Of a stretch of 49,673 nt of DNA, positions 11,521 through 13,086 are shown one piece after another. The stretch is from a virus (taxonomy: Duplodnaviria > Heunggongvirae > Uroviricota > Caudoviricetes), in IMG/VR virus record IMGVR_UViG_2778261214_000022, positions 1 to 49,673 of that record. The stretch is one strand, 5' to 3'. The notes below the pieces were generated by a model. That model was not told the DNA's origin. It did not search any database and saw only the letters and a program-made list of their open reading frames with translations. The position numbers and the translations under genes were made by a program. Position 1 is the stretch's first letter; the number at the start of each line of letters is the position of its first letter.

Positions 11521-12300
11521 ATGGAAACGTTGATTGATACGTTAAAAGCGATGCAAAAGGTGACGTGCACTGAGCTTGCTACCAGTTTGGGCATTGCACC
11601 GGCTGAGGCGATTAAAATGTTGCGGGAGTACGAAGAGCAGGGAGAAGTTGTATCGGTTAATGGTTACTGGTCTGTTTCAGAACGACAAAGTGGCGTGAAA
11701 GAAAAAACAGTGCCGGTGTGTAAAGCGGAAAGAAAATCCCGCATGGTGGTCAGCAGAAAAGACCGTGAGCCACTGAATCGCTGCGACATCCTGTCCACAC
11801 TTGCTCATGGTGGGGCAATGACCACCGCTGAGATTGCAATTGCTGTGGGGCGTGCTGATTGCGTCAGGTCGCTGGTTTCTGCGATGGAAAAGCTTTGCCG
11901 CGATGGCATGGCGATTAAGCTGGGACAGGGGAAGGGGTGTAAGTGGATGCTGGTAAAAGAAACCGGGGAAAATTTACCAGCAGAGCCGAAATTTGTATCG
12001 GTAGCGAAAACACCTGGTAAAGCCTTTTCTCGGCCAGCCGGTGTTGCGTTACCAGTACAGGAGGTTGCAACACAGGAAGATATTAAAACAGAAACTGTGG
12101 CGGACATTGTGCATTCGCTGCCATCGTTTACTGAAACGCGAGCTGATGACCTGGTTTTACCATCACTGCATATGGCAAACCGCGAACTGCGTCGGGCGAA
12201 AAATCATGTCCGGAAGTGGGAGCGAGTCTGCGCGGCGCTGCGGGAACTGTACAGGCACAAGGATATTGTCAGACAGATTATCGCCACCGGAGAACGGTAG
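11521..12300 (+). CDS. Hypothetical protein with two winged-helix-like segments
   Basis: 259 aa ORF; function not recognised. Confidence 0.65.
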   Translation: METLIDTLKAMQKVTCTELATSLGIAPAEAIKMLREYEEQGEVVSVNGYWSVSERQSGVKEKTVPVCKAERKSRMVVSRKDREPLNRCDILSTLAHGGAMTTAEIAIAVGRADCVRSLVSAMEKLCRDGMAIKLGQGKGCKWMLVKETGENLPAEPKFVSVAKTPGKAFSRPAGVALPVQEVATQEDIKTETVADIVHSLPSFTETRADDLVLPSLHMANRELRRAKNHVRKWERVCAALRELYRHKDIVRQIIATGER

Positions 12301-12302
12301 CG

Positions 12303-12620
12303 GTGAGTGGCTGGAAGAAGTGGTGCAGGGCTGAAATCATGGTGCTCCGGCAGTGTGCGGGAACGATGACAGTCGACAGCATCGGCAGTCTGATTGGTCG
12401 TAGTGAGCCGGCGGTCAGGGCGAAAGCACGGGAACTGGGTATCGGCATGATGTTGCGTGGTGATTATCACCAGTCAACAAAATATCCGCAGAGCGATATT
12501 GAGCTGGTGCGACAGTTGCATCAGCGTGGCGTGTCCAGGAGAGAAATTGCCAGAAAATTCGGAATGCCGTTGCGCACAGTGAATAACTACGTTTATTTCA
12601 ACAGGAGGGTTCTGGAGTGA
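12303..12620 (+). CDS. GcrA-like / HTH DNA-binding protein
   Basis: N-terminus SGWKKW...GTMTVDSIGSLIGRSEPAVRAKARELGI fits GcrA N-domain pattern; C-terminal HTH (VSRREIARKFGMPLRTV); GTG start inferred. Confidence 0.5.
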   Translation: MSGWKKWCRAEIMVLRQCAGTMTVDSIGSLIGRSEPAVRAKARELGIGMMLRGDYHQSTKYPQSDIELVRQLHQRGVSRREIARKFGMPLRTVNNYVYFNRRVLE

Positions 12621-12907
12621 GGGTTTATATCGCCGGTCCAATGACGGGCTATGAAAATTTCAACCGTGAGGCGTTCCACAAGGTGGAAGAGGAACTGAAA
12701 CGGGATGGGCACACAGTCTTAAATCCGGCAGTACTTCCGGACGGACTGACGCAGCCGCACTACATGGATATTTGCATGGCAATGATTCGCTGCGTGGATG
12801 CGATTTACATGCTGAAAGACTGGCAGCGGTCGGCAGGTGCCAGGGCAGAACTGGCACTGGCGGAGAAGCTGGGGCATGCGGTTATTTTACAGAAGGCGAT
12901 GCAGTGA
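12617..12907 (+). CDS. DUF4406-like protein, nucleoside 2-deoxyribosyltransferase-like fold
   Basis: 96 aa; N-terminal YIAGPMTGYENFNREAF motif; GTG start with AGGAGGG RBS; GTGA overlap with upstream stop. Confidence 0.7.
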   Translation: MRVYIAGPMTGYENFNREAFHKVEEELKRDGHTVLNPAVLPDGLTQPHYMDICMAMIRCVDAIYMLKDWQRSAGARAELALAEKLGHAVILQKAMQ

Positions 12908-12909
12908 AT

Positions 12910-13086
12910 ATGTTCTGGATAATCAAAATTGAGCTGTTTGTTATTGTTTTCCTGATCAGTGCATTTCTGGCAGCGGCTTTTATTATCTGGGAAAATCCTT
13001 TTCGACATATCAGTCCACTGTTTGCAATCAGGGTGTTAATAGCATCGGTTGTAGTGGTGTGGTTAATTTGTTTTGCATTATTTTAA
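12910..13086 (+). CDS. Small membrane protein
   Basis: 58 aa, two hydrophobic segments; coupled to upstream gene. Confidence 0.4.
   Translation: MFWIIKIELFVIVFLISAFLAAAFIIWENPFRHISPLFAIRVLIASVVVVWLICFALF

Follow-up and report, generated by a model that had tools for sequence, protein, structure and literature searches.

A minimal DUF4406 protein with a predicted nucleoside-deoxyribosyltransferase-type fold and its helix-turn-helix neighbor in a lambdoid prophage

A 96-aa protein encoded in a lambdoid prophage is, as judged from its structural model, a stand-alone minimal DUF4406 member of the nucleoside-deoxyribosyltransferase (NDT)/deoxyribohydrolase superfamily. Its gene is an ordinary, already annotated member of an uncharacterized family (RefSeq labels an essentially identical gene, with 99.9% DNA identity, as DUF4406), and its pairing with the helix-turn-helix gene directly upstream is incidental. 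The analysis showed how the gene is built, its family and fold, how far its motifs are conserved, and the mosaic character of its surroundings.

Gene organization of the locus

The window is the whole stretch of 49,673 nucleotides analyzed here. The 701 bases around the gene pair were 99.9% identical to a prophage adjoining ttcA in strain OkiPb01716. Around the pair, that prophage contains int/xis, recET, kilR, a repressor pair, O/P-like replication genes, DUF1627, DUF1367, YbcO, a Q-like antiterminator, and lysis, terminase, and portal genes. This identity and the surrounding lambdoid gene set bear out the prophage setting given in an earlier sequence-only reading of the locus, and the window is identified on these grounds as a Rac-like lambdoid prophage of Escherichia coli. 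The features around the pair are listed below; the Shine-Dalgarno sequence and the overlap were read directly from the nucleotide sequence.

11521..12300 (+): DUF1627 (YdaW-like) gene; Pfam DUF1627, E 5.9e-61
12303..12620 (+): helix-turn-helix gene, 105 aa; GTG start, TGA stop at 12618-12620
12603..12608 (+): AGGAGG, Shine-Dalgarno sequence of the DUF4406 gene, 8 nt before its start
12617..12620 (+): GTGA overlap between the helix-turn-helix stop and the DUF4406 start
12617..12907 (+): DUF4406 gene, 96 aa; GTG start; predicted minimal NDT-superfamily alpha/beta domain

Both open reading frames (12303-12620 and 12617-12907, + strand) and the GTGA overlap at 12617-12620 were found where the sequence-only reading had placed them. 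The N-terminus of the DUF4406 protein is (M)RVYIAGPMTGYENFNREAF. The 99.9% identical RefSeq genome has the start of the helix-turn-helix gene at the ATG of 12339, but two residues that are invariant (n = 22 homologues), Trp7 and Glu11, are encoded 5' of this ATG. Because the ATG start would remove these two residues, and because many homologues are annotated at 101-105 aa, the GTG at 12303 is the better start of the helix-turn-helix gene.

The gene pair sits in the early-right block, which extends from the replication genes to Q. No separate promoter or terminator bracketing the pair was detected, and promoter-like sites occurred at chance level. A moron with its own promoter and terminator was rejected, since no such signal rose above chance around the pair. 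The term accessory region, which had been applied to this locus, is loosely right; the pair lies within the early-right block and lacks the signals that would mark a separately expressed moron.

Family and predicted fold of the DUF4406 protein

The 96-aa protein matched Pfam DUF4406 (PF14359) with an E value of 6.3e-37 and a score of 126.3 bits against a gathering cut-off of 22, and its residues 1-90 spanned model positions 1-90 of 91. It also matched PHROG 355. The score with the Pfam NDT model (PF05014) was 13.9 bits, below the gathering threshold of 28.8, and a match to DUF1937 was also sub-threshold. The proposed membership in DUF4406 was therefore confirmed over nearly the full model, with a score far above the cut-off and well outside what chance would give, whereas the NDT model itself stayed below its threshold. 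All the DUF4406-specific residues, Y-I-A-G-P-M-T/S-G, N-R..F, N-P-A.L-P.G-L, Y-M, and S.G-A..E, were present in the protein and were kept across 32 close and 245 diverse homologues. Neither NCBIfam nor PADLOC gave a match for the protein, and nothing relevant was returned when PDB sequences were searched, whether the query was the protein itself or a profile of 32 sequences.

An AlphaFold2 model of the protein based on 32 homologues had a pLDDT of 92.9. In this model, four strands alternate with helices, the chain stops after the fourth strand, and the resulting three-layer alpha/beta fold is superposable on solved members of the NDT/deoxyribohydrolase superfamily. These results confirm the NDT/dNMP N-hydrolase-type fold that had been suggested from the N-terminal motif pattern. 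The higher-ranked structural neighbors were DUF1937, NDTs, and MilB. DUF1937 (PDB 1t1j) is itself uncharacterized, and this match therefore adds no functional information.

Conserved residues and comparison with characterized enzymes

Conservation was determined in an alignment of 245 homologues that were 43-90% identical to the 96-aa protein. Phe20 and Ser72 were conserved in approximately 100% of them (Ser72 in 245/245), Glu78 in 244/245, Gly74 and Tyr49 in 99%, Gly7 in 98%, Asn16 in 95%, Arg17 in 91%, and Tyr4 in 90%, with Phe at the last position in 8%. The hallmark of the superfamily, a Glu in the pattern [D/S]-x-G-x3-E where the helix that follows the penultimate strand begins, together with an aromatic residue (Tyr or Phe) in strand 1, is found in DUF4406. 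The spacing of Ser72-x-Gly74-x3-Glu78 is equal to that of the corresponding motifs in human DNPH1 (Ser98-Leu-Gly100-Val-Gly-Tyr-Glu104) and the Lactobacillus transferase (Asp92-Val-Gly94-Leu-Gly-Met-Glu98), the sequences of which were confirmed against the PDB entries.

Shallow and deeper DUF4406 profiles were aligned by hhalign with the single sequences of DNPH1, LlNDT, and DmtZ, which served as a consistency check only because the probabilities were approximately 1%. In this register, Tyr4, Ser72, Gly74, and Glu78 of DUF4406 fall on Tyr24, Ser98, Gly100, and Glu104 of DNPH1 (probability approximately 1%) and on Tyr6, Thr97, Gly99, and Glu103 of DmtZ (probability approximately 1%). No significant sequence similarity was found between DUF4406 and any of the characterized enzymes compared by hhalign and the Pfam NDT model, and the residue equivalences therefore rest on fold and motif spacing.

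The catalytic triad of DNPH1 is made up of Tyr24, Asp80, and Glu104, the last of which forms the covalent intermediate, with Ser98 coordinating the 5'-phosphate (PMC10603095). MilB retains the serine equivalent to DNPH1 Ser98, and the presence of Phe17 in MilB, as against Tyr, sets the preference for ribose versus deoxyribose (PMC10603095). By the DNPH1/MilB serine and this Tyr/Phe rule, DUF4406 thus carries the form of the motif seen in nucleotide hydrolases, with Ser in place of Asp, together with the deoxyribose-type Tyr. Conservation of the general-acid Asp is not firm: 67% of the homologues have Asp51, and at position 53, Cys occurs in 81% and Asp in 9%. It was Cys53, rather than Asp51, that hhalign paired with DNPH1 Asp80, in an alignment that was not significant.

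Several differences from DNPH1/Rcl (2'-deoxynucleoside 5'-phosphate N-hydrolase; PDB 4p5e and 2khz) accompany the absence of significant sequence similarity. The crystallized chains of DNPH1/Rcl are approximately 150 aa long, compared with 96 aa here. The phosphate-type Ser six residues before the Glu is present as Ser72, but the helical extension with Ser128' is absent, the chain being too short, as is the His56/Glu55 element, and the equivalent of Asp80 is uncertain. Conversely, DUF4406 has invariants of its own, namely Asn16-Arg17, Phe20, Asn36-Pro-Ala, Pro41, and Tyr49. Of MilB and BlsM, the N-glycosidases of CMP and hydroxymethyl-CMP (PDB 4ohr), MilB differs in having Phe in the first strand, a preference for ribose, and Arg23 for the phosphate; Tyr4 of DUF4406, where MilB has Phe, suggests deoxyribose. 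The Lactobacillus NDT (PF05014; PDB 1f8x and 1s2d) shares the fold and has its Glu nucleophile at the equivalent helix N-terminus, but its Asp92 corresponds to Ser72 in DUF4406, its C-terminal third is absent from the DUF4406 protein (157 aa versus 96 aa), and the Pfam score is below the threshold.

DmtZ of Gordonia phage Ghobes and Arthrobacter phage Wayne (PMC12884076) is an NDT-like phage protein that has the Tyr...Glu pair in common with DUF4406, and both proteins have an uncharged residue where the transferases carry Asp. Nevertheless, DmtZ belongs to another subfamily: it has no Pfam model, consists of 161 aa with five strands, and showed no significant hhalign similarity to DUF4406. In addition, the phages encoding DmtZ have 2-aminoadenine genomes with PurZ0, whereas this prophage is without such a pathway.

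Proposed activity of the DUF4406 protein

We infer catalysis, substrate class, and biological role as follows. By analogy with the enzymes above, the DUF4406 protein may be a dNMP N-glycosidase or a deoxyribose-5-phosphate transferase that depends on Glu78 and edits the nucleotide pool in lytic growth, a proposal that we hold tentatively and place a little short of probable. The gene would share the transcription of the early-right block, in which it follows the O/P-like replication genes and DUF1627 and precedes the Q-like antiterminator. Its product would bind a 2'-deoxynucleoside 5'-monophosphate, the 5'-phosphate of which would be held by Ser72 and perhaps also by the Gly7-Pro-Met-Thr-Gly11 loop and Arg17. 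Tyr4 would position Glu78 and favor deoxyribose, and Glu78 would attack C1' to give a covalent deoxyribosyl-5-phosphate-enzyme intermediate. The intermediate would then be resolved either by water, as in an N-glycosidase, or by another base, resulting in deoxyribose-5-phosphate transfer, and the dNMP pool would consequently be edited during lytic replication. The upstream helix-turn-helix gene is a separate, exchangeable DNA-binding module, and the overlap reflects operon packing and not a dedicated two-protein system.

The choice of a 5'-monophosphate as the candidate substrate draws on gene linkage. DmtZ, the NDT-like protein of 2-aminoadenine phages, was shown experimentally in a 2026 study to be a dAMP hydrolase and a deoxyribose-5-phosphate transferase; its step follows that of dNTP pyrophosphohydrolases (a Dut-like enzyme and DUF5664), and fusions of DmtZ to these are frequent (PMC12884076). 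DUF4406 is similarly tied to such enzymes by fusion or adjacency in Yeet and Ariel. Mycobacteriophage Yeet gp156 (L166 1480-2226) is a true fusion of DUF4406 with a MazG-like (PRA-PH) domain, and in the related phage Ariel (L162 2477-4476), DUF4406 (gp162), PRA-PH (gp164), and DUF5664 (gp166) are encoded by separate genes within 2 kb. Furthermore, BFVD contains DUF4406-fold proteins with names that suggest, by name only, a fused dATP/dGTP diphosphohydrolase domain. These links to pyrophosphohydrolases, comparable to those of DmtZ, support a 5'-monophosphate as the substrate, with the examples being few and all outside this prophage. No dNTP pyrophosphatase gene adjoins DUF4406 in the prophage itself. 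Against the enzyme reading stands the lack of the C-terminal segment that in DNPH1 donates Ser128' to the neighboring subunit.

When 43 long DUF4406 proteins were scanned with Pfam for fused domains, one helix-turn-helix protein, one DUF551, and DUF7768 in three came to light, and otherwise almost nothing. Ariel gp162, named 'MazG-like pyrophosphatase', and Coral gp53, named 'deoxycytidylate deaminase', were rejected as fusions, as both are single-domain DUF4406 proteins, which leaves Yeet gp156 as the only real fusion of DUF4406 with PRA-PH. The GenBank product names of these two proteins (L162 2477-2857 and L163 2438-2845, respectively) are likely to be wrong.

Many database labels describe DUF4406 proteins as genuine nucleoside 2'-deoxyribosyltransferases, which swap bases between deoxynucleosides. 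We consider this unlikely here, since the Pfam NDT score falls short of its gathering threshold and the position of NDT Asp92 is an invariant Ser in DUF4406, a feature shared with two nucleotide hydrolases, DNPH1 and MilB. In addition, the chain stops after strand 4 and is approximately 60 residues shorter than the Lactobacillus enzyme, the C-terminal part of which contributes residues to the active site, Asn123 and the terminal Tyr157 among them. Several database names on DUF4406 proteins also proved unreliable.

Hydrolysis of NAD+ or of immune signals derived from ADP-ribose, such as the cyclic ADP-ribose isomers of Thoeris, would make the protein a factor of phage counter-defense. This activity is improbable for a protein whose higher-ranked structural neighbors are DUF1937, NDTs, and MilB, and whose Ser-x-Gly-x3-Glu motif and N-terminal Tyr fit the NDT/dNMP hydrolase branch. 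PADLOC was without matches, and a MazG-like nucleotide pyrophosphatase domain was identified in the one case in which the fusion partner was checked. In a 2022 survey of viral NAD+/ADP-ribose systems, moreover, the NAD-related DrHyd proteins in viruses were of the ARC type only (PMC9503650).

The small size of the protein (only 96 aa, without the C-terminal elements that complete the DNPH1 active site) and the incomplete conservation of the Asp general acid would also be consistent with a non-catalytic nucleotide binder, acting as a sponge for a small-molecule signal or as a sensor; inactive members of the clade do serve as nucleotide sensors (PMC9503650). However, the candidate nucleophile Glu78 is retained in 244 of the 245 homologues together with Ser72, Gly74, and Tyr4, a pattern expected of an enzyme, and we regard a purely binding role as very unlikely.

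Another reading gives a meaning to the genes that adjoin DUF4406 elsewhere. In several unrelated lineages, DUF4406 abuts or overlaps a DNA methyltransferase gene of the C5-cytosine (PF00145) or Dam type (PF05869), directly adjoining phage C5/Dam methyltransferase genes in N15 (gp57/gp58), Janthinobacterium, Aeromonas, and an actinomycete MAG; the loci concerned are L164 3001-4309 (phage N15 gp57/gp58), L139, L141, L142, L146, L154, L132, and L138. A DNA methyltransferase gene was present within 3.5 kb of DUF4406 in 15 of the 79 loci from other species, which is a raw count without a background rate, so that enrichment is unproven. The protein might destroy or re-base modified or alarm deoxynucleotides and thereby blunt nucleotide immunity, in which case the methyltransferase adjacency would be functional. 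The targets could be m6-dAMP, 5-methyl-dCMP, or dUMP arising from host DNA breakdown or host deaminase defenses, and the immunity affected would be of the nucleotide-sensing or nucleotide-poisoning kind. By our estimate, this reading has only a slim chance of being correct.

The upstream helix-turn-helix gene

The 105-aa protein matched phrog_323 ('transcriptional regulator') with an E value of 5.9e-26. Pfam HTH_23 matched residues 70-96 (E 2.4e-6), generic helix-turn-helix models covered only residues 60-98, and the N-terminal half had no Pfam match. The AlphaFold2 model (pLDDT 77) consists of two three-helix bundles and a low-confidence or disordered linker. The best match in both sequence and fold was 2lvs, a tandem helix-turn-helix CRISPR-repeat-binding protein, which was followed in Foldseek by DUX4 double homeodomains, the bipartite domain of Tc3 transposase, and a resolvase. 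According to the model, the protein is a bipartite DNA-binding protein with tandem tri-helical helix-turn-helix domains.

The sequence-only reading had called this protein GcrA-like. This name found no support in Pfam, chain length, hhalign, or Foldseek, and the protein is better described as a generic tandem helix-turn-helix protein. GcrA (PF07750) gave no Pfam match at E ≤ 10 with either the full protein or its N-terminal half, and the protein has 105 aa compared with the 173 aa of the GcrA chain in the PDB. The hhalign match to the GcrA DNA-binding domain was weak (E 0.0033, probability 9.7%) and fell on the C-terminal helix-turn-helix, and GcrA was absent from the top 50 Foldseek matches. 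The C-terminal domain of GcrA binds sigma-70.

In order to compare gene contexts, 82 close loci (DUF4406 at least 85% identical) and 79 loci from other species were used. The helix-turn-helix gene was directly upstream of DUF4406 with the 4-nt overlap in 23 of the 82 close loci and in none of the 79 from other species, whereas a DUF1627 gene occupied this position, with the same 4-nt overlap, in 58 of the close loci and in one of the others. In most related prophages, DUF1627 thus abuts DUF4406 directly. Where the helix-turn-helix gene is absent, homology to the window at the nucleotide level sets in precisely at 12617, the DUF4406 start codon, and a break at this point has the appearance of a typical lambdoid mosaic joint. 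No fusion of the two proteins was found among 265 homologues. The neighbors of DUF4406 in the 79 loci from other species included CI-like repressors, integrases, DnaB, O/P-like and NinG-like proteins, lysis genes, and DNA methyltransferases, with no universal partner among them, only generic genes of the early region of temperate phages.

The claim that the two genes are coupled as a functional pair finds no support in these counts or in the homology break, and the helix-turn-helix gene is an optional, interchangeable mosaic module upstream of DUF4406, not its partner. A dedicated two-gene system, for example an enzyme with its regulator or a pair of the toxin-antitoxin kind, could be argued from the GTGA overlap, from the recurrence of gene order and overlap in 23 related loci, and from the adjacency of both genes in reverse order in contig L094, but it is scarcely credible given the replacement by DUF1627 with the same overlap in 58 close loci, the absence of the helix-turn-helix gene from the directly upstream position in all 79 other-species loci, the lack of fusions among the 265 homologues, the homology break exactly at the gene boundary, and the occurrence of the helix-turn-helix family almost only in Enterobacterales records, as against that of DUF4406 across many phyla. 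Contig L094 is a 3.2-kb contig assigned to an Actinomycetes MAG that encodes, at 304-1256, an enterobacterial-type DUF4406 and, directly after it, a close helix-turn-helix homologue (E 1.6e-46), and it is probably mis-binned.

Distribution and significance of DUF4406

A match to part of the 701-base query was found in 1192 of 5426 complete E. coli genomes (approximately 22%), and 187 of the 5426 matched at least 80% of it. At E ≤ 1e-3, DUF4406 matched 10,514 cluster representatives (50% identity). Phage records with a DUF4406 match numbered 600, including N15 (gp57), phiKO2, Vibrio and Aeromonas phages, and many actinophages. No paper characterizing DUF4406 was found, the family not being the main subject by title or abstract where it is named, and the three papers naming DUF4406 yielded no biochemical data on any member. 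If the prediction of a dNMP N-glycosidase or transferase is true, temperate phages of many phyla would possess a compact enzyme for editing the nucleotide pool. This would be relevant to nucleotide-based immunity, and the enzyme might be of use as a small biocatalyst.

Other genes in the window

An unannotated 58-aa open reading frame at 12910-13086 (+) starts 2 nt past the DUF4406 stop codon. Its very hydrophobic product (MFWIIKIELFVIVFLISAFLAAAFIIW...VVVVWLICFALF) resembles a small membrane protein with two helices. It had no Pfam match, was complete in only five of the fetched loci, and is unannotated in the 99.9% identical RefSeq genome.

A 316-aa protein encoded at 21795-22745 (+) matched Pfam TAGT (TET-associated glycosyltransferase) with an E value of 6e-35 and is named 'GREB1-related protein' in RefSeq. 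Its gene overlaps the preceding ParB_N-domain gene (20870-21820, +) and is located between the lysis genes and the small terminase gene. The TAGT and ParB_N genes may form a DNA base-glycosylation module. Among the window open reading frames scanned, there was no TET/JBP, methyltransferase, or hydroxymethylase gene that would link DUF4406 to TAGT.

The gene at 25361-26800 (+), which follows the large terminase gene, bears the RefSeq label 'anti-CBASS protein Acb1 family protein' in the near-identical genome. According to Pfam, its product is a phage portal protein (Phage_portal_3, E 6e-13).
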